Position numbers and translations under genes: made by a program. 64,000 nt of DNA from Christensenella sp. UBA7571 (lineage in GTDB: Bacteria > Bacillota > Clostridia > Christensenellales > CAG-917), in contig DLLD01000015.1 of assembly GCA_002476605.1 (NCBI GenBank), forward strand, positions 9,694 through 73,693, given 5' to 3'. This document shows, piece after piece, positions 9,353-59,368 of this stretch (position 1 is its first letter; every line of letters begins with the position of its first letter). Below the pieces are notes generated by a model, which saw only the letters and a program-made list of their open reading frames with translations, did not search any database and was not told the origin of the DNA.

Positions 9353-10167
9353 ACTTCCTCCACGAGTTTGTCTTTGCTCACGATTGGCGCGTCAAAGACG
9401 AAACCTTTGCTTTTTAGTTTTTCGGACAATTGCGATACGGGCGGAAGCGTAAGTCCGCACGCTTCCAAAAGTCCCGACGAAAATACTTCTTCGGGAGTGC
9501 CGTCAACTGCGATTCTGCCCTTGCGGAGCACGATAATTCTGTCCGCAAGCACCGCTTCTTCCATATTGTGAGTGATGTTTACGACGGTAATTCCTTGCTC
9601 GTTGAGAGTGGTGGCAATATCCATAATCTCTTTGCGCCCGTTGGGGTCGAGCATAGAGGTGGACTCGTCCAAAATGAGAATATCGGGGCGCATTGCAAGC
9701 ACGCCCGCGATTGCCACTCTTTGTTTTTGTCCTCCGCTCAATTTGGATACGGAACGATTGCGATATTCGCTCATTCCAACGGCATCGAGTGCGTAATTCA
9801 CTCTTTCCACGATTTCTTCGCGCGGTAAACCGATATTTTCAGGTCCGAACGCTACGTCATCCTCGATAATGGTTGCAACCGTCTGATTGTCGGGATTTTG
9901 GAAAACCATACCCGCTTTTTTGCGGATTTCAAAAGTATTTTTTTCGTCGGACGTGGAAAGACCGTCGATAAGCACTTCTCCGCTCGACGGTATAAAAAGA
10001 CCGTTGAGAAGTTTTGCAAGCGTGGATTTGCCGCTGCCGTTCATACCCACGAGCGCGACAAATTGGCCTTTCTCAACGGAAAAAGACAGGTTTTTGAGGG
10101 CTTTTAGACTGCGGCCCTCCCCTAATGAGTAACTATAACTTACTCCTTTGAGGACAATTTGCGACAT
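9334..10167 (-). CDS. ecfA1: ECF transporter ATPase EcfA1 (start trimmed from the track ORF)
   Basis: It has Walker A GMNGSGKST, signature LSGGQKQR and Walker B ILILDES. The homologous N-terminus begins at MSQIVLKGVSYSY (ATG 10165-10167). The 47-codon upstream extension in the track runs into a non-coding repeat. Confidence 0.88.
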   Translation of the reverse strand: MSQIVLKGVSYSYSLGEGRSLKALKNLSFSVEKGQFVALVGMNGSGKSTLAKLLNGLFIPSSGEVLIDGLSTSDEKNTFEIRKKAGMVFQNPDNQTVATIIEDDVAFGPENIGLPREEIVERVNYALDAVGMSEYRNRSVSKLSGGQKQRVAIAGVLAMRPDILILDESTSMLDPNGRKEIMDIATTLNEQGITVVNITHNMEEAVLADRIIVLRKGRIAVDGTPEEVFSSGLLEACGLTLPPVSQLSEKLKSKGFVFDAPIVSKDKLVEEVCRQLR

Positions 10168-10173
10168 ATCGCG

Positions 10174-10202
10174 ATTATACCACAGAGTATTTAGATTTGC
10201 AA
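10174..10202 (-). promoter_or_regulatory. sigma-A-type promoter of the ecf operon that may produce a leaderless mRNA
   Basis: On the minus strand the sequence reads TTGCAA (10202-10197), a 17-nt spacer, then TGG-TATAAT (10179-10174). The -10 ends 6 nt before the ecfA1 ATG and no Shine-Dalgarno sequence lies between them. Confidence 0.55.
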
Positions 10203-10236
10203 TCTTATATCGTTTATTGTGGATTTTATGAAAATT

Positions 10237-10372
10237 TCGAGTGTGGGTGTCCCGCCCTCGAAACAGTGATATCGTGCTTGCGCACGGTGATATTTGCGCA
10301 TAGCGCAAGTGATATTTTTTGTTATCGCAAAAAGTGATATTGCGACTTTGTCGCAGTTGTGGAATATTCCAT
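10237..10372 (+). repeat. Family A hairpin array: GC hairpin, then 4 x (GTGATAT + short palindrome), then GTTGTGGAATATTCC
   Basis: GTGATAT occurs 4 times, separated by CGTGC-TTGC-GCACG, TTGCGC-ATA-GCGCAA, TTTTTG-TTATCG-CAAAAA and TGCGAC-TTT-GTCGCA. The same architecture recurs at 56775-57058. Confidence 0.8.
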
Positions 10373-10391
10373 AAACAATAATAAAGTGCGT

Positions 10392-10719
10392 CGTAACTCC
10401 TCTAAATAGAATTGCCCCCTCTTTCCGGACACGCCGGCATTTCTAAAAAAATAATTAAATGCAACTTTCCCCCTTCCTCACGGTGTTTCCCCTATTCCGT
10501 TCCCCCTCCGCACTTCGTTTGAGGGAACCCACGGAACCGCTCCGCGGGGGGACACACTCGGCACGCGCATAGAGAAGTAACGTTCTCTCGTTATGCCACT
10601 CGTTCGCCAACGAAAAGAACAACACTCGTTGGCTCACTTGTACTTATCATCAAGCTTGGCGCTCGATTCGGTCGGCGCCTTGCGCCTCCAACTCCGAATA
10701 AGCAGATTCCGTGTATAAG
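10392..10719 (+). repeat. Family C interspersed structured element, copy 1 (about 330 nt)
   Basis: It shares conserved blocks with 42676-42953 and 51436-51950. These are TAACTCCTCTAAATAGAATTGCCCCCTCTTTCCGGACACGCCGGCATTTC, CTCGTTATGCCACT, the hairpin GCCAACGA/TCGTTGGC, CTTGTAC and the hairpin GGCGC-CTT-GCGCC. Confidence 0.75.
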
Positions 10720-10836: not shown

Positions 10837-10895
10837 TTCGGGTGTGGGTGTCCCACCCGCAATTATTAATTATTAACTATTAATTATTAATTCCT
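10837..10895 (+). repeat. H0 GC hairpin (TTCGGGTGTGGGTGTCCCACCC) fused to an AT-rich TTAATTATTAA tract
   Basis: A near-identical composite occurs at 59298-59352. H0 alone occurs at 47951-47972 and heads each family A copy. Confidence 0.75.
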
Positions 10896-10902
10896 AAAAA
10901 AT

Positions 10903-10931
10903 ATTGACTTAAAATTTTTCTCAATATATAA
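10903..10931 (+). promoter_or_regulatory. sigma-A-type promoter of nifJ
   Basis: TTGACT (10903-10908), a 17-nt spacer, then TATAAT (10926-10931). A GGAGGA RBS precedes the ATG at 11006. Confidence 0.65.
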
Positions 10932-11005
10932 TATCTAATGACTATGCGCATCGCGCGCATACGCAAAATATTACTCGAAGATACTTTATTGGAGGAATTC
11001 CCGAT

Positions 11006-17137: not shown

Positions 17138-17241
17138 TTTATCCTTCTTTGCGCACCTATGCGCAGTGATATGAACGTATAAAATCTATTGGTGCAATGC
17201 ACTTCATTTTATATCCGTTTTATATCACAATTCGTTTTATT

Positions 17242-37300: not shown

Positions 37301-37405
37301 CCAAATAGATGAAGAACAAGGAAGAGCCGTCCGTACGACAACCCAATTTACAAGTCGTAAATGAGTTGCGGGCGGACGGCTCTGACGCAGTTATTCGTTA
37401 TTTGG
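37301..37405 (-). repeat. Family B extended-hairpin module (variant with AGATGAAGAACAAGGAA arm), overlapping the stop codon of the M28 gene
   Basis: The outer stem is GAGCCGTCCG/CGGACGGCTC (37324-33/37373-82). The core is CAAC-CCAA-[TTTAC..GTAAA]-TGA-GTTG. P1 is CCAAATA/TATTTGG. On the minus strand the hairpin is followed by UUCCUUGUUCUUCAUCU. Confidence 0.7.
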
Positions 37406-42645: not shown

Positions 42646-42675
42646 GTGGTAAGAGAAAGCGCATATTTGCTACTT

Positions 42676-42953
42676 CGTAACTCCTCAAATGCAATGCCCC
42701 CTCTTTCCGGACACGCCGGCATTTCTCCCGCCACTCGTATAAGGGTATTTCTCTACAATATTATCCGTCGCTCGCGGGGGAGACAATCGGCACTCACATA
42801 AAAAAGTATCGTCCCCTTGTTATATCACTCGTTCGCCAACGAAAAGAACAACACTCGTTGGCTCACTTGTACTATCCGTCAAGTTCGGCGCTCCACCGCT
42901 CACCGCCTTGCGGTTCGAGTTCTGTCTCCGAAATTGCGCATAGCGTTTATAAG
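42676..42953 (+). repeat. Family C interspersed structured element, copy 2 (about 280 nt)
   Basis: It has the same conserved blocks as copies 1 and 3. Hairpins are GCCAACGA/TCGTTGGC (42835-42/42855-62) and ACCGC-CTT-GCGGT (42902-14). Confidence 0.75.
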
Positions 42954-46984: not shown

Positions 46985-46990
46985 CTTCGG

Positions 46991-47020
46991 TAGAGCCGTC
47001 CGATTTTCGGACGGCTCTTT
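46991..47020 (+). terminator. hairpin terminator after ricT
   Basis: The sequence is AGAGCCGTCCG-ATTTT-CGGACGGCTCT-TTC, with a short U tract. Confidence 0.55.
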
Positions 47021-47094
47021 CGACACCTATCTCGCACCGTTTTATAAAATATTTTTTATTAGATTATATCCGCATTACCCAAATTGTAATACGG

Positions 47095-47514
47095 CTATTT
47101 ATGTGCTTTTGCATATTTCAATGCATTGTAAGCACCGCCAAAATCACTCGTCACATACAACAAAACGTAATCTGCGTTTTTTATCATCCACTCGTTTCTC
47201 TTGGATATAGCAAACTTTAACGGTACGTTCTCAATCTCGGGATAAACAATCTCGTCATATTCTTCGTTTAGATAATCTTCCCTATTCTTTAACCATTTAT
47301 TTATATAAGGCGTCACGAAAATCAATCTCGTATCGGGGTGCGTTTCTTTATATTTTTTTGCACATTTTTTTACAAATCCGTCAAAATTCCCGTATCCGCC
47401 AAAATAAAAATTCAATCGTTCACCGTTTGAAATTTTTGATAATAAACTTAAAACTTTTTCTTCGTCCCCAAGGTTAGACATAAAGGAAGAGTGCCCAAAA
47501 ACTGTAATATTCAT
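47095..47514 (-). CDS. SLOG-family (YpsA/DUF1273-like) protein
   Basis: The 139-aa protein shows the pattern ITVFGH...FYFGGYGNFD...IFVTPY...ADYVLLY..GGAY, which resembles the YpsA/DUF1273 Rossmann-like SLOG fold. The gene is clearly AT-richer than its flanks. Confidence 0.5.
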   Translation of the reverse strand: MNITVFGHSSFMSNLGDEEKVLSLLSKISNGERLNFYFGGYGNFDGFVKKCAKKYKETHPDTRLIFVTPYINKWLKNREDYLNEEYDEIVYPEIENVPLKFAISKRNEWMIKNADYVLLYVTSDFGGAYNALKYAKAHK

Positions 47515-47533
47515 TGCTAATATCCGCCCCGCT

Positions 47534-47654
47534 TATGTAAGTATACTTTCTCAATTATAGCACTGAATGTTTATTCTAGTAAAGCGTATGTAAGTATACA
47601 TTCTTATTGTTAAAAATGCAAATACTATAATTGGTATGAAAGCATACTTTCATA
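47534..47654. promoter_or_regulatory. divergent control region with candidate operators
   Basis: The direct repeat TATGTAAGTATAC occurs at 47534-46 and 47587-99. The perfect inverted repeat TATGAAAG-CATA-CTTTCATA lies at 47635-54, just downstream of a TATAAT (47626-31). Confidence 0.5.
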
Positions 47655-47673
47655 CAAATTATCGAGGTGCGTT

Positions 47674-47916
47674 GTGACTGTAAATGATGCCGTGGCAAAA
47701 AGAATAATTGCTCTGTTGTCCGAAAAGAAGATGACGCAGTATCGTTTGGAGCAACTTTCGGGCATACAACACGGACATATGCAATGGATATTGAGTGGGA
47801 AAAGCAAAACCGTGACTTTATCCACCGTAATGATGATTGCACACGGTTTTGGAATGACCGTATTAGAATTTTTGGACGACGACCTCTTCAAATACGAGAA
47901 TTTAGAAGTAGAATAA
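47674..47916 (+). CDS. XRE-family helix-turn-helix transcriptional regulator
   Basis: The 80-aa protein has a GTG start with a GAGGTG RBS. The HTH pattern is IIALLSEKKMTQYRLEQLSGIQHGHMQWILSGK. Confidence 0.75.
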   Translation: MTVNDAVAKRIIALLSEKKMTQYRLEQLSGIQHGHMQWILSGKSKTVTLSTVMMIAHGFGMTVLEFLDDDLFKYENLEVE

Positions 47917-47920
47917 CATA

Positions 47921-47952
47921 GAAACCGAGAACTGTGTTCTCGGTCTTTTTTT
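47921..47952 (+). terminator. rho-independent terminator of the XRE gene
   Basis: The sequence is ACCGAGAAC-TGT-GTTCTCGGT-CTTTTTTT. Confidence 0.8.
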
Positions 47953-47972
47953 CGGGTGTGGGTGTTCCACCC
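47951..47972 (+). repeat. H0 GC hairpin module
   Basis: The sequence TTCGGGTGTGGGTGTTCCACCC directly follows the terminator U-run. It is the same module seen at 10837, 56775, 56918 and 59298. Confidence 0.7.
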
Positions 47973-48007
47973 TCACCGTCATTCCCTCTATAAAAAATGC
48001 GATAAAC

Positions 48008-48353
48008 AGATGAAGAACAAGAAAGGACTGTTCGCACGGCAACCCTAATTCCACTTGTTAAAAACGCGATAAATCGATGCACAACGCGAAAGCACCCCGA
48101 GGAGCGCAAACCCAACGTACACGACGTACGTGATTTGCGAAACTCGGGGTGCTGTAAGGAACGCAGTGACGGAATAGCGATTGTTACGTTATGCGTCAAT
48201 CGCGTCCAAAGTTAGGCGCGATTTAGCGCGTTTGTAAAACTTCGATATTTAGATGAAGAGCAAGGAAAAGCCCCTCGAATGACAACCCTAATTTACTAAT
48301 CGTAAATGAGTTGGCAGTCGAGGGGCTTTGACAAAGCTATTCGCTAAATAGCG
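48008..48353 (-). repeat. Array of family B modules: one truncated, two complete, plus a small GCGC hairpin
   Basis: Complete modules have outer stems 48092-48101/48143-52 (GCACCCCGAG/CTCGGGGTGC; core GCAAA-CCCAA-[CGTAC..GTACG]-TGA-TTTGC) and 48267-78/48318-29 (AAAGCCCCTCGA/TCGAGGGGCTTT; core CAAC-CCTAA-[TTTAC..GTAAA]-TGA-GTTG). The truncated copy is at 48008-48060. Confidence 0.7.
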
Positions 48354-48359
48354 AAGTTT

Positions 48360-48491
48360 TTACTTGCAGTCTTTGCAATCGGAAACGCCCTTTTTAGCGC
48401 GAGATTTCGTCGTTTTCTCTACTTTCGGTTCACCGCAATGGCAACCTTCGGATTTCTTGGTTTGTTTGACAGTTGAATTTGTTTTTGCCAT
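48360..48491 (-). CDS. small basic Cys-containing protein (43 aa), absent from the ORF track
   Basis: The translation is MAKTNSTVKQTKKSEGCHCGEPKVEKTTKSRAKKGVSDCKDCK. A strong RBS (AAGGAG) lies 7 nt before the ATG at 48489-48491, and a family B hairpin sits immediately downstream. Confidence 0.5.
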   Translation of the reverse strand: MAKTNSTVKQTKKSEGCHCGEPKVEKTTKSRAKKGVSDCKDCK

Positions 48492-48612
48492 AAATATCTC
48501 CTTTTATTTTGAGGCGTTGCGCCTCGGGTTATCCGTTTGAGCGGATTTGATTATAGTATGGCAAAAAGCGTGTGTTTATATACCTTGCGCAATCAAAAAA
48601 ATGTGGTATAAT

Positions 48613-50217: not shown

Positions 50218-51453
50218 ATGCTTGAACTATTGATGCCGGCGGGCAATCTCAAAAAACTCAAAACTGCTTTTCACTTCGGTGCGGACGCCGTGTATATAGG
50301 CGGAAAGCAGTTTTCTTTGCGTGCCTTTGCGGACAACTTCTCCGAAGAAGAAATGATAGAAGGCATAAATTTTGCTCACGCGTTCGGCAAAAAAGTGTAC
50401 GTCACGGTCAATATATTTGCCAAAAATTCCGACCTCGAAAAAGCCAAAGAATACTTTGAGTTTTTGCAAAAAGTCGGCGCTGACGCGGTGCTTATAAGCG
50501 ATATAGGTCTCGTGACGCTTTGCAAAGAAGTTGCTCCCGACCTCACTATTCACCTCTCCACGCAAGCCAACACAACTAACCTTCTTGCCGTCAAATTTTG
50601 GCAAAGTATGGGCGTAAAACGCGTGGTGCTTGCGCGCGAACTCGGCTACGACGAGATACTTGCCGTTCACAACGCCGTACCCGATATGGAACTCGAAGCG
50701 TTCGTGCACGGCGCAATGTGTATGAGTTACAGCGGGCGTTGTCTTCTCTCCTCTTATTTTAGCAATCGCAGTGCCAACCGCGGGGCGTGCATACAACCTT
50801 GCCGTTGGGGATATCGCATAACGGAGACGGAACGCCACGAGGGAAAACCTCTCGATATAGAGCAAGACGAGAGAGGCACTTACTTTATGAACAGTCGCGA
50901 TTTGCGCCTTTTGAGGCATATTCCCGAAATTGCACAATCGGGCATCGTTTCACTCAAAGTGGAAGGCCGTATGAAGAGCGAATTTTACGTCGCTACGGTG
51001 GCGTGCGCCTATCGCAAGGCAATCGACGAGTATTTGTCCACGGGACGTATAGACGACGTGGACACGCTCGAAACGCGCCTCGAAACGGTTGCTCACCGCA
51101 CCTACACCGACGCGTATTTTGACGGAGACAACCTCAACACCGTATGTATGGACGAGGGACAATCCCAAGAAAAATATATCTTCACCGCAGTCGTGCTTGA
51201 CTACTCGGACGGCGTTGCCACGGTTGAAATGCGCAATCGCTTCAAAACGGGTGACGTCTTGCGTATACTCTCCCCCGACGAGAGCGTAGACGACGAGCTT
51301 TTTGCCGTCGGTGAGATAACCCACACTCAAACGAACGAAAAAACGGACGATGCCAAACTCGTGCAACATACCTATTCTTTTGGCTGCCCCTACGCCGTTC
51401 AAAAAGGTGATTTATTGCTTAAAGACATGGACAGTCATAACTCCTCTAAATAG
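50218..51453 (+). CDS. peptidase U32 family protein
   Basis: The N-terminal pattern ELLMPAGNLKKLKTAFHFGADAVYIGG and a conserved Cys-rich core (CMSYSGRCLLS) support the call. The last codons and the stop lie inside family C copy 3. Confidence 0.85.
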   Translation: MLELLMPAGNLKKLKTAFHFGADAVYIGGKQFSLRAFADNFSEEEMIEGINFAHAFGKKVYVTVNIFAKNSDLEKAKEYFEFLQKVGADAVLISDIGLVTLCKEVAPDLTIHLSTQANTTNLLAVKFWQSMGVKRVVLARELGYDEILAVHNAVPDMELEAFVHGAMCMSYSGRCLLSSYFSNRSANRGACIQPCRWGYRITETERHEGKPLDIEQDERGTYFMNSRDLRLLRHIPEIAQSGIVSLKVEGRMKSEFYVATVACAYRKAIDEYLSTGRIDDVDTLETRLETVAHRTYTDAYFDGDNLNTVCMDEGQSQEKYIFTAVVLDYSDGVATVEMRNRFKTGDVLRILSPDESVDDELFAVGEITHTQTNEKTDDAKLVQHTYSFGCPYAVQKGDLLLKDMDSHNSSK

Positions 51454-51950
51454 AATTACCCCCTCTTTCCGGACACGCCGGCATTTCCACTTCGGCGTTT
51501 GCGCACCGCAATCCGCCTCGTTCGCTTTGGCTACAACACATTCACCGAATGTGTTGCTTGACGCGTCGCGCCCGACCACTCTTATAATGGCATTTCTCTG
51601 CAATATTATCCGTCGCTCGTGGGGGAGACATTTGGCACGCGCATAGAAAGGGACATTTCTCTCGTTATGCCACTGCGCTTTGTGCGCCAGCTACGCAACA
51701 ACACGGCGCAGTCGCTTGTACTACACCCCACAAGGCTTCCACACACAAAAGACAAGCGAACGAAGGCGCGATATATAAGATGAAAGCGCAGTCTTTTGTG
51801 TGAAGGAAAGAAGGAGCACCAAGGCAAAAAGCAAACAATTGGCACAAGTGGCAATTGTGGCAAAAAGCCTTGTGTGTGACGCGAGCTTGGCGCAAAGACG
51901 CTCGCCGCCTTGCGGCTCGAAGATCTGAATAAGCACATTTCGCTTATAAG
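51436..51950 (+). repeat. Family C interspersed structured element, copy 3 (about 515 nt, with two insertions)
   Basis: It has the same left block, central block (ATTTCTCTGCAATATTATCCGTCGCTCGTGGGGGAGACA), CTTGTAC, and the hairpin GCCGC-CTT-GCGGC (51904-16). Extra nested helices are CACAAGGCTT/AAGCCTTGTG and CACACACAAAAGAC/GTCTTTTGTGTG. Confidence 0.75.
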
Positions 51951-52002
51951 AGTGTTTCTAATATATAATATAAATGCGTAATATAACTTATAATAAAACA
52001 AT

Positions 52003-52032
52003 AAAAAAGCACGCAAGATTGCGTGCTTTTTA
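52003..52032. terminator. bidirectional rho-independent terminator
   Basis: The sequence is AAAAAA-GCACGCA-AGAT-TGCGTGC-TTTTT, placed downstream of the minus-strand gene ending at 52059. Confidence 0.8.
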
Positions 52033-52058
52033 TTATTTGTTTTTTTGCGATTATGCGA

Positions 52059-53936
52059 TTACGCCGTTGCCGTCGTATCCGCCGTTACGGGCGTATCGGC
52101 ATTTTCGGGTGTTTCGTCCGTACCGAGTTCTTTTGCGAGCATAATGCGTTCGCGAGAATCGTCCGTGCGCTTGCGCGTCTTTTCACCCATATCACGGCAT
52201 ACGCCTGCCGCTATGATGAGCACCACGCCGACAGCACCGAGAGTGCAGAACCAGTTGCGCAAGGACACGACGTTGATAACCGCCATAAGCAAGTTGTCGC
52301 TGTCAACCCACGTTGCTTGCATATAGCCGAGCATACCGTAAGGTGCGTTCATTGAGAAGAGGTTAATTTCGAGTGCGTCATCGTCGTTGAGGCAAAGACC
52401 GATTTGAAGCGCAGAGCCTTGCGTTGCCGCAGCGATGACTTCTGCAAGGTCTTCTTGCACGAGACCGCCGACTGCTTTGACTGCGCCGAGTTGGTCGAGA
52501 ACACCGATAACCAAACTTACGATATCGTTGTCAAGAGACGTGATTGACATCGGATCGCCGAGCATATCGAGGACGAGCCAGTTGATGGGACGTTTGGTAT
52601 AGCCGTTTTCGTACATAATCCATCCGTCTTCGTTGTAGCCGTATCTGACCTTGACTTCGTTGTTGTTTTGGTCGACTATCGTACCCTCGTAATCGAACGC
52701 ACCGCCGTTTGCGACGTATTCGTCAACCATAGCCTTGTCGTACAATTGATAGAGGAAGTTGCCGTTTTCACTGTAGATGGTCTTTCCGCTTCCGTCAGTG
52801 CCTTCGTAACCGGGTTGCGAATAACTCCAACCTTTGTTGAGGATAAGGCGCAACACCACGGGGATAGTCATACGACCGTTGACTTGCGCATAAAGGAGGA
52901 GCGGATCGTCAAACGTAAGATAACCGTCTTGGTTGAAGCTGTTGTAATTGTCAATGAACAACTTCTTCACGCGCGGATTGTTGAAACCTTCTTTGAGCAA
53001 GCCTTCGTAACCGCCTTTTGAGGTGTTGAAGTATTTGTAGATATAGTCGGTGATTGCAAGACCGAGAGCACGTCTTTCAACGCTGTTGTTGAAAGCGTAA
53101 TCGTAGTCGTTGAGGATATCGTACTTGTAGATAAAGTCGAAAAGTTCAATCTTGGTCGGATTCTCTTTTCTGAGGTTTTCGATGGCTTTGTCTATGGTTT
53201 CGATATCGAGATAGTTGTCGTACCACTCCGCAAATCTTTCCGCGATGTACTCGTTGTCATATTCGAGACCCGTGCGTTTTGCAAGAGTTTTGTACGAGAA
53301 GTCACCGTTTTCTTTGATCTTGACTTCACCGGTGTCTGCATCCACCTCAAAGTCGTTGAGGTTGCCGTTGAGCACGTTGTAGGTGAAATAATCTCTTTCG
53401 AGTTTTGCATTCTTCTCCGCTTGCGCTTCACCGTTGTAGTACAAGTCCTCGCAGTAGAGAGTGTTTTGCGTTGCGTTTGCGATGACGTCGGGAACGATGT
53501 ACGTGAGAAGAAGTCCAAACACGCAAGTGAGGCACACGAACGCAATGAGCGTGCGCACCGTTTGCGAACGTATGCTTCTCTTGGATTTTCTTCTCGTCAC
53601 GACGAGCGTAATCGTCATAAAGATAATTCCGAAGAGCCCCGCGATAATCACGCCGACGAACGGCCAGAAGGAATAGTACGGCATAAGATTGTAGCACTTG
53701 ATGCCGAGCACGAGCGAGATGATAAAGATAGGTAGATATGCAAGCACGTAAAGTACAACCGTTGCCACCGTGTACAAAACGGACGTTCTGGATTGGTCGT
53801 TTTTGGTGCGTTTGCTTATCGGGAAGGCTTTCTTGACCTTGACGTCTGCGACTTCTTCACTATTTTGTTGCGTATCGACGACTTCGTCTTGTACGACGTC
53901 GTTCACTTCGTTGACTGCGTTATAATTGTCGCTCAT
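52059..53936 (-). CDS. large hypothetical membrane protein (625 aa)
   Basis: It has an acidic N-terminal tail, 3 N-terminal TM helices, an extracytoplasmic domain of about 400 aa, a C-terminal TM helix and a charged tail. Its ATG lies 1 nt after the upstream stop. Confidence 0.65.
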   Translation of the reverse strand: MSDNYNAVNEVNDVVQDEVVDTQQNSEEVADVKVKKAFPISKRTKNDQSRTSVLYTVATVVLYVLAYLPIFIISLVLGIKCYNLMPYYSFWPFVGVIIAGLFGIIFMTITLVVTRRKSKRSIRSQTVRTLIAFVCLTCVFGLLLTYIVPDVIANATQNTLYCEDLYYNGEAQAEKNAKLERDYFTYNVLNGNLNDFEVDADTGEVKIKENGDFSYKTLAKRTGLEYDNEYIAERFAEWYDNYLDIETIDKAIENLRKENPTKIELFDFIYKYDILNDYDYAFNNSVERRALGLAITDYIYKYFNTSKGGYEGLLKEGFNNPRVKKLFIDNYNSFNQDGYLTFDDPLLLYAQVNGRMTIPVVLRLILNKGWSYSQPGYEGTDGSGKTIYSENGNFLYQLYDKAMVDEYVANGGAFDYEGTIVDQNNNEVKVRYGYNEDGWIMYENGYTKRPINWLVLDMLGDPMSITSLDNDIVSLVIGVLDQLGAVKAVGGLVQEDLAEVIAAATQGSALQIGLCLNDDDALEINLFSMNAPYGMLGYMQATWVDSDNLLMAVINVVSLRNWFCTLGAVGVVLIIAAGVCRDMGEKTRKRTDDSRERIMLAKELGTDETPENADTPVTADTTATA

Positions 53937-56774: not shown

Positions 56775-56916
56775 TTCGGGTGTGGGTGTCCCACCCCCGC
56801 CCTCAAAAATAGTGATATTGTGCTTGCGCACAGTTATATTTGCGCTTTGCGCAAGTGATATTTTTGGCTTGCGCCAAAAGTGATATTCGCACTCTGTGCG
56901 AGTTGTGGAATATTCT
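56775..56916 (+). repeat. Family A hairpin array, copy 2
   Basis: H0 (GGGTGTGGGTGTCCCACCC) is followed by GTGATAT/GTTATAT heptamers at 56812, 56833, 56855 and 56880. These are separated by TGTGC-TTGC-GCACA, TTGCGC-TTT-GCGCAA, TTTTGGC-TTGC-GCCAAAA and TCGCAC-TCT-GTGCGA. The copy ends in GTTGTGGAATATTC. Confidence 0.8.
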
Positions 56917-56917
56917 A

Positions 56918-57058
56918 TTCGGGTGCGGGTGTCCCGCCCCTTTCTCAAAAATAGTGATATTGTGCTTGCGCACAGTTATATTTGCGCTTTGCGAGAGTGA
57001 TATTGTTGCTATCGCAACAGTGATATTCGCACTTTGTGCGAGTTATGGAATATTCCAT
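56918..57058 (+). repeat. Family A hairpin array, copy 3 (tandem with copy 2, 143-bp period)
   Basis: The architecture is the same, with H0 changed to GCGGG/CCCGC and the third hairpin to TGTTGC-TATC-GCAACA. The second hairpin is degenerate. Confidence 0.8.
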
Positions 57059-57583
57059 ATTTCGCTACGCTAGATTCCCACGCTAACGCTCGGAATGACA
57101 AACGGAATAATCCATCAGCGCACAAAGTGCGCCTAACGTTGCTCGTAGACAGGCGGAGCCGTAGAATATAACTCCACGAAGAGTTGTTGTGAGCATCAAC
57201 TATCCGTCCGAGCAACCGCCGAGCCGTCTCAAGGTTGTGAGACCTTACGCACAAAAGCAATGCTCCTTTCACCAAGCAAGCGATATAGCGAAACTGTGGA
57301 TTGAGTTTTTATCCGTGCCCAAACTGATAGCGTGTATCGGTTGCGCGGTAGTAGTTGCGAGAACAAATGCGGTTTATGACAACAAATGTATTTGTTGTCA
57401 TCACCGCGATGCCGTTTGAGCAACGTGCGCCTAAATATGTGTCAAGTTATCTTGAAAAGATAAGTGACACGTGTTTAGCATTCGGCGCAAAAAAAATTAA
57501 TACAATCATTAATTTTTGTGTGCATATAATTCGTTTTCGCATTTTAATCTTAAAACTCGCACAAATTGATTTCATTTTTGATA

Positions 57584-59297: not shown

Positions 59298-59352
59298 CGG
59301 GTTTGGGTGTCCCACCCACAATTATTAATTAATAATTGCTAATTATTAATTT
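59298..59352 (+). repeat. H0 hairpin variant plus AT-rich palindromic tract
   Basis: CGGGTTTGGGTGTCCCACCC is followed by the perfect palindrome AATTATTAATTAATAATT and then GCTAATTATTAATT. It is the counterpart of 10837-10895. Confidence 0.7.
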
Positions 59353-59368
59353 TAACTCGCACAATTCC

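Follow-up and report, generated by a model that had tools for sequence, protein, structure and literature searches.

Three copies of one hairpin array lie on the + strand of a 64,000-nucleotide stretch of the Christensenella sp. UBA7571 genome (contig DLLD01000015.1; this whole stretch is called the window), at 10236-10372, 56775-56916 and 56918-57056. The first copy occupies the spacer between the PFOR gene and an operon for an ABC/ECF-type ATPase, and the other two, arranged head to tail, are found in the spacer of the GDH locus. Each copy begins with a GC hairpin, continues with four units of a heptamer (GTGATAT or GTTATAT) plus a perfect mini-hairpin, and closes with GTTRTGGAATATT. The arrays belong to the Rfam family Gut-1, and Gut-1 is probably best described as a dispersed, modular, extragenic repeat rather than as a dedicated gene for a protein-titrating RNA. 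The features on which the argument rests are the following.

10234..10377, + strand: complete cassette of the GC hairpin (called H0) and array, with bounds set by relatives without the cassette (L305, L306; L-numbers designate related loci used for comparison with the window copies)
10236..10262, + strand: GC-rich H0 hairpin TTCGAGTGTGGGTGTCCCGCCCTCGAA 5′ of copy 1, a separate repeat module
10266..10355, + strand: array of copy 1, with four GTGATAT heptamers at 10266, 10287, 10309 and 10334
10273-10286, 10294-10308, 10316-10333 and 10341-10355, + strand: perfect hairpins of copy 1, one after each heptamer
10356..10372, + strand: terminal motif of copy 1, with the degenerate heptamer GTTGTGG at 10356 and the palindrome GGAATATTCC at 10361-10370
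17150..17172, + strand: solo unit in a short intergenic spacer, hairpin TGCGCACCTATGCGCA followed immediately by GTGATAT
56775..56805, + strand: H0 hairpin 5′ of copy 2
56809..56916, + strand: array of copy 2, with heptamers at 56812, 56833 (GTTATAT), 56855 and 56880, and GTTGTGGAATATT from 56902
56918..56948, + strand: H0 hairpin 5′ of copy 3
56951..57056, + strand: array of copy 3, with heptamers at 56954, 56975 (GTTATAT), 56997 and 57020, and GTTATGGAATATTCC from 57042

The alternation of heptamers and hairpins in copy 1, and the presence of further copies near 56.8-57.06 kb, had been pointed out by an earlier reading of the bare sequence (the original prediction), and both were confirmed by sequence inspection, by chance tests and by R1, a covariance model of the family. 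GTGATAT occurs 26 times in the window, against 4.9 ± 2.3 expected, and a three-heptamer pattern occurs four times, against none in 100 shuffles; the isolated GTGATAT sites elsewhere in the window are nearly all within genes. On the window, R1 retrieves exactly three copies, scoring 113.5 bits (copy 1, 10263-10368), 111.7 bits (copy 2) and 93.4 bits (copy 3), the next best hit reaching 14 bits. The pattern is thus far beyond chance. The heptamers of copy 1 are spaced by 21, 22 and 25 nt, as the predicted range of 21-25 nt had it, every spacer being a complete hairpin, and the terminal palindrome GGAATATTCC folds as a fifth small hairpin; hairpin 2 of copy 3 is degenerate (TTGCGC..GCGAGA). Some details had to be amended. 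The proposed start, 10237, is one base late, as H0 begins at 10236. The heptamer, described as invariant, reads GTGATAT in 10 of 12 cases only, the second heptamer of copies 2 and 3 being GTTATAT. Finally, the GC hairpin, which had been taken as a part of the array, indeed precedes all three copies, but it is a module of its own, with six copies in the window (0.02 expected), three of them array-free.

At gathering scores, no Rfam family matched in the window. A cmscan search with reporting by E-value, which had been suggested as a check, brings out a single family, Gut-1 (RF01706), which matches all three copies just under its curated gathering score of 50 bits: 48.0 bits at 10264-10345, 39.5 at 56831-56908 and 36.2 at 56952-57031 (E = 7e-9 to 4e-5). 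None of the window copies reaches that score, whereas several relatives exceed it (L091, 66.8 bits; L050, 58.0; L106, 52.7; L093, 50.3), as do both halves of the composite elements described below. Across some 85-110 aligned nucleotides, L093 and L106 share about 80-85% identity with the window arrays, which are thus sub-threshold yet genuine members of Gut-1.

Gut-1 was defined from 43 members, all of them from human-gut metagenomes, and its authors rated it as an RNA that is probably not cis-regulatory, remaining silent on its function (Weinberg et al., 2010; PMC2864571). The seed alignment of 2010 already contains GUGAUAU members with the layout of the window copies, i.e., a strong hairpin, units of heptamer and hairpin, and then GUU..., as well as a downstream inverted array of AUAUCAC and hairpins. 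The window copies share with the family at least three short hairpins, with compensatory pairing, between GUGA(A/U)AU motifs, the strong hairpin before and the GUU... after them, and the occurrence in gut bacteria. Besides their lower score, they differ in consisting of four hairpins and the GGAATATTCC palindrome, without an inverted second half, and in being preceded by the H0 repeat in place of a gene terminator. The motif itself has therefore been known since 2010; a literature search for the heptamer returned primers only, and, as far as we found in the literature searched, there is no earlier description of the clades that carry it, of its copy number and modularity, of the polymorphism of its cassettes or of the strand tests given here.

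A pattern scan of one genome per species yielded at least 119 stretches, and 91 of 119 are true hairpin arrays among the matches listed. Among these, and judging by record titles, the carriers are overwhelmingly Oscillospiraceae, Acutalibacteraceae, Christensenellaceae and unclassified Clostridia or Eubacteriales metagenome-assembled genomes (MAGs), the carrier MAGs coming from human and ruminant guts. A metagenome scan for the window-type end (..GTTRYGGAATATT) gave 55 stretches, to which the terminal motif of GTTGTGG and GGAATATTCC is common, and those with a labelled source are all human-gut assemblies. The original prediction had made its case depend on conservation outside this genome, and the arrays are present in many gut Clostridia and in metagenomes. 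Their copy number was estimated from coverage-matched metagenome contigs and from an ascertainment-corrected density. One sample holds 13 strict matches on 12 contigs of the same coverage, and another holds nine, which gives at least 13 copies in one population genome; in the 393 kb fetched, the covariance model detects 65 copies, and the 10 that remain once the copies that had triggered the fetch are set aside correspond to about one per 40 kb. The window itself has three in 64 kb. By contrast, true arrays make up only 2 of 120 viral pattern matches, and blastn against plasmid and phage collections gave no match, on which grounds a phage or plasmid origin was rejected.

Close relatives, chosen by having ABC-ATPase or GDH proteins in the same 90% identity clusters as the window proteins, show what the chromosome looks like without the cassette. 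In L305 and L306 the flanks are homologous, but 17 unrelated bases replace window positions 10234-10377, which correspond exactly to H0 plus array. In L299-L304 the whole PFOR-ABC spacer measures 264 nt only, with both promoters kept. The GDH spacer of L296 and L297 has 434 nt, with an H0-like hairpin and (AATTATT)n but without arrays, and that of the window is about 690 nt longer, both arrays included. Such cassette-free relatives at the same loci indicate that the neighbouring genes can do without the cassette, and that its gain or loss concerns the whole unit. A likely PFOR promoter (TTGACT-17-TATAAT) is found at 10904-10932 and that of the ABC operon at 10202-10174 on the minus strand, so that copy 1 is placed between divergent promoters, and at the GDH locus the arrays are likewise between divergent promoters. 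A role of the array as 5′ leader of PFOR or GDH was rejected, because the PFOR promoter and the gene-proximal part of the GDH upstream region are conserved in the array-free relatives; in the annotation of the window, the arrays should not be taken as regulators of either gene.

The family is modular. Most arrays have four heptamers, with a start-to-start spacing of 18-32 nt, mostly 22-25, and 324 of 366 spacers are self-complementary from the first to the last base. In the window-type subfamily about 12 types of hairpin stem can be distinguished, with positional preference: the last stem is TCGCAC, TGCGCC or TTGCGC, and the penultimate one is the A/T-rich TTTTTG or TTTTGG. The order of stem types varies among copies, the number of units ranges from two to five, and one orthologous locus has four units in L147 versus two in L149 and L169. 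Downstream, 3′ of GGAATATT, other repeat modules follow in variable combinations (H0, (AATTATT)n and several more); upstream of the array H0 was found in none of the window-type metagenome copies retrieved. Many Oscillospirales carry a composite element, built of a forward half, a short centre (TATATTCGCC..) and an inverted half. In the forward half the four heptamers are near-invariant (GTGATAT in 113 of 116), and those of the inverted half are degenerate and, read on their own strand, U-richer (GUUAUAU, GUUUUAU) beside a long terminal hairpin. Pairing of forward GUGAUAU with downstream AUAUCAC, which would make a ladder of four-way junctions, was rejected for the composite elements, because the inverted heptamers vary (ATACCAC, ATAAAAC, ATAGAGT) with no matching change in the forward half.

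These measurements bear on whether the array could be read as double-stranded DNA, as an iteron-like, nucleoid-protein or regulator cluster in which GTGATAT would be the binding site and the palindromes would be incidental. A conserved heptamer that recurs roughly every two helical turns, without any constant orientation to transcription, is what such an array might look like. However, with spacings of 18-32 bp helical phasing is not kept, each spacer being a full hairpin whose length varies, and the self-complementarity of 324 of 366 spacers to the last base, kept by paired changes, is left unexplained by double-stranded binding. Iterons and plasmid origins have constant spacing and an initiator gene or replicon, and here the neighbours are housekeeping genes, with no replication gene nearby and no plasmid or phage match, while the isolated GTGATAT sites of the window are almost all intragenic. 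The iteron alternative of the original prediction consequently fails, and duplex binding in general seems to us highly improbable. Two possible resemblances are that of TATCACT (the reverse complement of AGTGATA) to the WATCACW heptad bound by the omega repressor of inc18 plasmids, and that of the terminal palindrome TTGTGGAATATTCCATAA to a Rex or CRP-type operator.

The absence of covariation in a larger alignment had been named as a result that would speak against the hairpins, and what the alignment gives is pairing kept by paired changes. Among 35 distinct window-type copies 99.2% of cells are paired, and among 57 copies 97.9%, versus 76.5% and 74.2% in shuffles; cells with both sides changed number 222 and 384, versus 69 and 114 in shuffles, and slid controls are far lower. 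Two-sided change is seen in 17-19 of the 30 pairs. This signal is in part module swapping. Of the stem differences quoted in the original prediction, CGTGC/GCACG versus TGTGC/GCACA and TTTTTG.. versus TTTTGGC.. are one-pair compensations, whereas TGCGAC/GTCGCA versus TCGCAC/GTGCGA, as well as TGTTGC/GCAACA, are exchanges of standard recurring modules. True maintenance is nevertheless seen in single-pair variants within modules (TGCGAC/TGTGAC/TGCGGC, TTTTTGC/TTTTGGC, CGTGC/TGTGC). The palindromy of the units is actively maintained.

Which nucleic acid, and which strand, carries the hairpins is a further matter. In 339 distinct units the stems contain 1642 Watson-Crick pairs, 14 G-T, 20 A-C and 16 others, so that on the heptamer strand G-U is no better tolerated than A-C. 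Loops of the type G-N-A or G-N-N-A are found in 131 of 286 units (46%) on the ATATCAC strand versus 8 of 286 (3%) on the GTGATAT strand, and the pair closing the triloops is C-G in 145 of 152. Mini-hairpins of the form d(C-GNA-G) are exceptionally stable in DNA (PMC13037366, PMC3201870). Folding z-scores are -6.7 for the sense RNA and -6.9 for DNA. As RNA, the sense strand folds better than the antisense (-55.5 vs -41.7 kcal/mol), because of invariant A-U and U.G extensions at the helix bases. Moreover, both the Rfam consensus and RNAalifold pair the AU end of each heptamer with the GU start of the next, leaving about three nucleotides (GAU) unpaired. Of the proposal that heptamers are displayed as single-stranded motifs between the hairpins there remains, in sense RNA, this free GAU, the rest being paired in the consensus fold. 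Taken together with promoters and orientation, the indirect tests, including the counts of G-U and A-C, favour neither transcribed strand. A loop of the type c(GNRA)g is stable in RNA too, and the argument for DNA over RNA from the loops and from the absence of G-U is suggestive only.

Along these lines, Gut-1 would consist of stacks of single-stranded-DNA mini-hairpins, not of small RNAs: the ATATCAC strand would form loops of the types c(GNA)g and c(GNNA)g, the stems would have Watson-Crick pairs only, and the heptamer beside each hairpin would be read by a putative dedicated protein of the Clostridia. We hold this reading as tentative and rather doubtful. The likeness to the d(GC-GNA-GC) mini-hairpins of single-strand initiation sites and phage N4 early promoters lies in the G-N-A and G-N-N-A loops of the ATATCAC strand, their 5′C-G3′ closure and their stems of 5-7 bp. 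In those systems, though, single hairpins stand at phage or plasmid replication or promoter sites, and here arrays stand in chromosomal spacers, with no replication-direction bias detected. This last test uses local proxies, GC skew and coding-strand bias, and showed no bias against either (19:17, 18:18 and 19:16, and 14:10 where both proxies agree).

The genes around the arrays are unrelated to each other. No recurrent neighbour was found: 71 flanking proteins match 83 Pfam families, each at most three times, and no transposase or RAYT family is among the 25 most frequent of these. Seventeen arrays are found no more than 400 nt away from a tRNA gene, and these tRNAs are of many identities. 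Arrays are enriched in convergent spacers, and about one third of them have a terminator-like hairpin on the array strand within 90 nt upstream, versus 7% of random positions, in some cases just 5-12 nt before the first heptamer. In composite elements, the terminal hairpin adjoins a convergent gene in 31 of 38 cases (31 vs 7), or else the 3′ end of a tRNA. Orientation is not fixed: among window-type copies, 16 left-hand genes share the orientation of the array and 21 oppose it, and for right-hand genes the numbers are 9 and 22. Arrays immediately 3′ of stop codons occur in sense (the L121 group, L151 and L152, with a terminator after them) as well as in antisense (L161, L093), and a same-strand terminator follows the array in L030, L052, L126, L130 and L122. 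No promoter at a fixed distance upstream of the arrays was found.

Part of this context would suit a stack of weak, orientation-dependent terminators or insulators, in which each sense hairpin, followed by GU(G/U)AUAUU, would back up the terminator of the upstream gene and shield neighbours from read-through. In composite elements the terminal hairpin of the convergent gene, or the tRNA, is directly followed by the array, the heptamers closest to that hairpin are the U-richest, and both the upstream terminator-like hairpins and the enrichment in convergent spacers point the same way. But a terminator has no need of a near-invariant GUGAUAU, the U-tract is poor (4 U in 8 bases), some arrays stand antisense to the gene that they follow, and the window copies lack a co-oriented upstream gene. 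As the main explanation we regard it as unlikely, although it is partly compatible with a dispersed repeat.

The same data weigh on the possibility, in line with the Rfam entry and with the original prediction, that Gut-1 is a trans-acting small RNA whose tandem hairpins present a repeated motif titrating an RNA-binding protein. It agrees with the Rfam assignment and the rating as an RNA (PMC2864571), with the strongly maintained pairing, with the stable sense fold (-55.5 kcal/mol, z = -6.7), with invariant helix-base pairs (A-U, U.G) that only sense RNA could form, and with the arrays that are followed by a same-strand terminator or lie between stop codon and terminator. It is at odds with tens of copies per genome, with the lack of a promoter at a fixed distance and the little room left for one by the upstream terminator-like hairpins, with the variable orientation to flanking genes, with the position of the window copies between divergent promoters, with a cassette that is dispensable in close relatives, with G-U pairs that are not commoner than A-C mismatches and with stable G..A loops on the opposite strand. 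We judge a titrating RNA improbable. The CsrB/RsmZ-like design put forward in the original prediction is, in particular, not supported. CsrB and RsmZ likewise interleave a short repeated motif with hairpins, but they are single- or few-copy genes at conserved, fixed loci, with their own promoter and terminator and with GGA exposed in loops, whereas the consensus fold of Gut-1 leaves most of the motif paired.

The reading that probably accounts best for these observations is that Gut-1 is a dispersed, modular, extragenic hairpin-array repeat, similar to REP, BIME and BOX elements. REP/BIME of Enterobacteria, BOX of Streptococcus pneumoniae and STAR of Staphylococcus aureus are multi-copy extragenic repeats. 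Tens of Gut-1 cassettes (at least 13 in one population genome, about one per 40 kb) are dispersed in spacers beside genes unrelated to each other, with a preference for the 3′ ends of genes; copies exchange units, the number of units changes (L147 versus L149), and close relatives may lack a cassette altogether (L305/L306, L296/L297), without a fixed relation to transcription or to particular genes. The cassette is composed of a strong hairpin (the terminator of the upstream gene, or H0 in the window), two to six units of GTGATAT plus a perfect hairpin of 5-7 bp, and a GTT..GGAATAT end. Its hairpins would form in a single-stranded state, as is suggested by spacers that are fully self-complementary despite their variable length, which double-stranded phasing leaves unexplained. 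The heptamer may be the recognition site of a putative protein, and units may be exchanged through recombination or slippage at heptamers. G..A loops with C-G closure on the ATATCAC strand, and stems nearly free of G-T, would suit mini-hairpins of DNA no less well than RNA. Any effect on the host would come from hairpin stacks at transcript ends or in spacers (termination, insulation, 3′-end protection), and not from titration of a regulator.

Gut-1 shares several features with REP, BIME, BOX and STAR: all are extragenic and occur in numerous copies, for the most part at the 3′ ends of genes or in convergent spacers; they are built of short palindromes flanked by a brief conserved motif, mingle with other repeat modules into mosaics, and vary in unit number, orientation and presence among strains. 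In contrast with REP/BIME, however, the window units are direct tandem repeats with different stems rather than one REP sequence alternating in orientation, no RAYT-type transposase was found near the arrays among the listed Pfam families of the neighbours, and the estimated copy number is lower, in the tens rather than the hundreds.

Several facts sit uneasily with a dispersed repeat. No mobilising enzyme was found beside the arrays among the Pfam families listed for the 71 flanking proteins, and the single junction compared gives no sign of a target-site duplication. The composite element seems to be kept at apparently the same tRNA 3′ flanks in several MAGs: it lies downstream of tRNA-Gln in L016 and L048, and the same terminator and upstream flank recur in L119, whose closest called tRNA is a tRNA-Ser. 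A copy in a 3′ untranslated region, between stop codon and terminator, is also kept across divergent samples, and together these conserved positions suggest a constraint at the level of the host. Furthermore, the near-invariance of the heptamer in one half of the composite element (113/116) and the strong strand asymmetry of the loops are not needed by a merely selfish palindrome. The sense RNA has the better fold (-55.5 vs -41.7 kcal/mol), the authors of Gut-1 rated it as an RNA (PMC2864571), and strong selection for stability on short stems could equally purge G-U pairs.

In human and ruminant guts, Gut-1 can now be assigned to Oscillospiraceae, Acutalibacteraceae and Christensenellaceae, and the question shifts from which protein an RNA sponges to what reads and spreads hairpin arrays, which is testable in cultivable carriers. 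If the single-stranded-DNA mini-hairpin reading were true, it would amount to a new system, REP/RAYT-like or based on hairpin recognition, by which cassettes are spread and units reshuffled chromosome-wide.

Several other repeats accompany the arrays. The H0 hairpin (TTCGGGTGTGGGTGTCCCACCC) forms a family of its own, with window copies at 10236, 10837, 47951, 56775, 56918 and 59296, all on the + strand; it also occurs downstream of arrays in the metagenome relatives L136 and L145, and an H0-like hairpin is present in the GDH spacer of L296. Tandem (AATTATT)n repeats follow H0 or the array end, in the window at 10861-10892 and 59320-59355, and also in L106, L131, L150, L160, L164, L167, L170, L296 and L305; those at 10861-10892 lie just 5′ of the predicted PFOR -35 box (10904), in the position of an UP-like A/T element. 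A module TTCGCTACGCTRGATTCCCACG...CGGAATGAC at 57058-57100 follows arrays at many loci, in the same orientation in L123, L133, L138, L159, L172 and L163 and in the reverse one in L140, L141, L153, L157 and L166. Another, CAGCGCAC-AAA-GTGCGCCTAACGTTGCTCGTAGACAGGCGG, at 57113-57160, recurs after arrays in L125, L146 and L165, and a repeat family AGATGAAGAACAAGGAAG..., at 37303-37361, 48004-48062 and 48247-48305 in the window, is found directly 3′ of the tandem arrays in L091. Window positions 57270-57424 share 83-84% identity with two places in L091 that have opposite orientations, and thus represent another dispersed repeat. Large spacers also harbour a repeat family of about 270 nt that includes CCCCCTCTTTCCGGACACGCCGGCATTTC (10390-10664, 42672-42893, 51434-51674), present as well in L305 and L306; an Rfam search of this family and of the other repeat modules of the window gave no match. 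The spacer at 46985-48546, unusually long (about 1.56 kb) and with no open reading frame of 150 amino acids or more, holds H0 and other repeat modules.

Outside the repeats, the predicted promoter of the ABC/ECF-type ATPase operon (10165-10202, minus strand; TTGCAA-17-TATAAT plus a TG upstream) is conserved in L299 as well as in L305. Only 6 nt lie between the end of its -10 box and the ATG at 10167, and there is no visible Shine-Dalgarno sequence, so that the mRNA may be leaderless. In the Rfam searches, a weak match to the Trp operon leader at 52001-52107 on the minus strand (29.7 bits vs a gathering score of 41, E = 0.0085) is probably due to chance, and the tmRNA, THF riboswitches and ZMP/ZTP riboswitch matched in related loci (L126, 2202-2565; L130, 14113-14206; L157, 1641-1734; L030, 4869-4952) are unconnected with the arrays.

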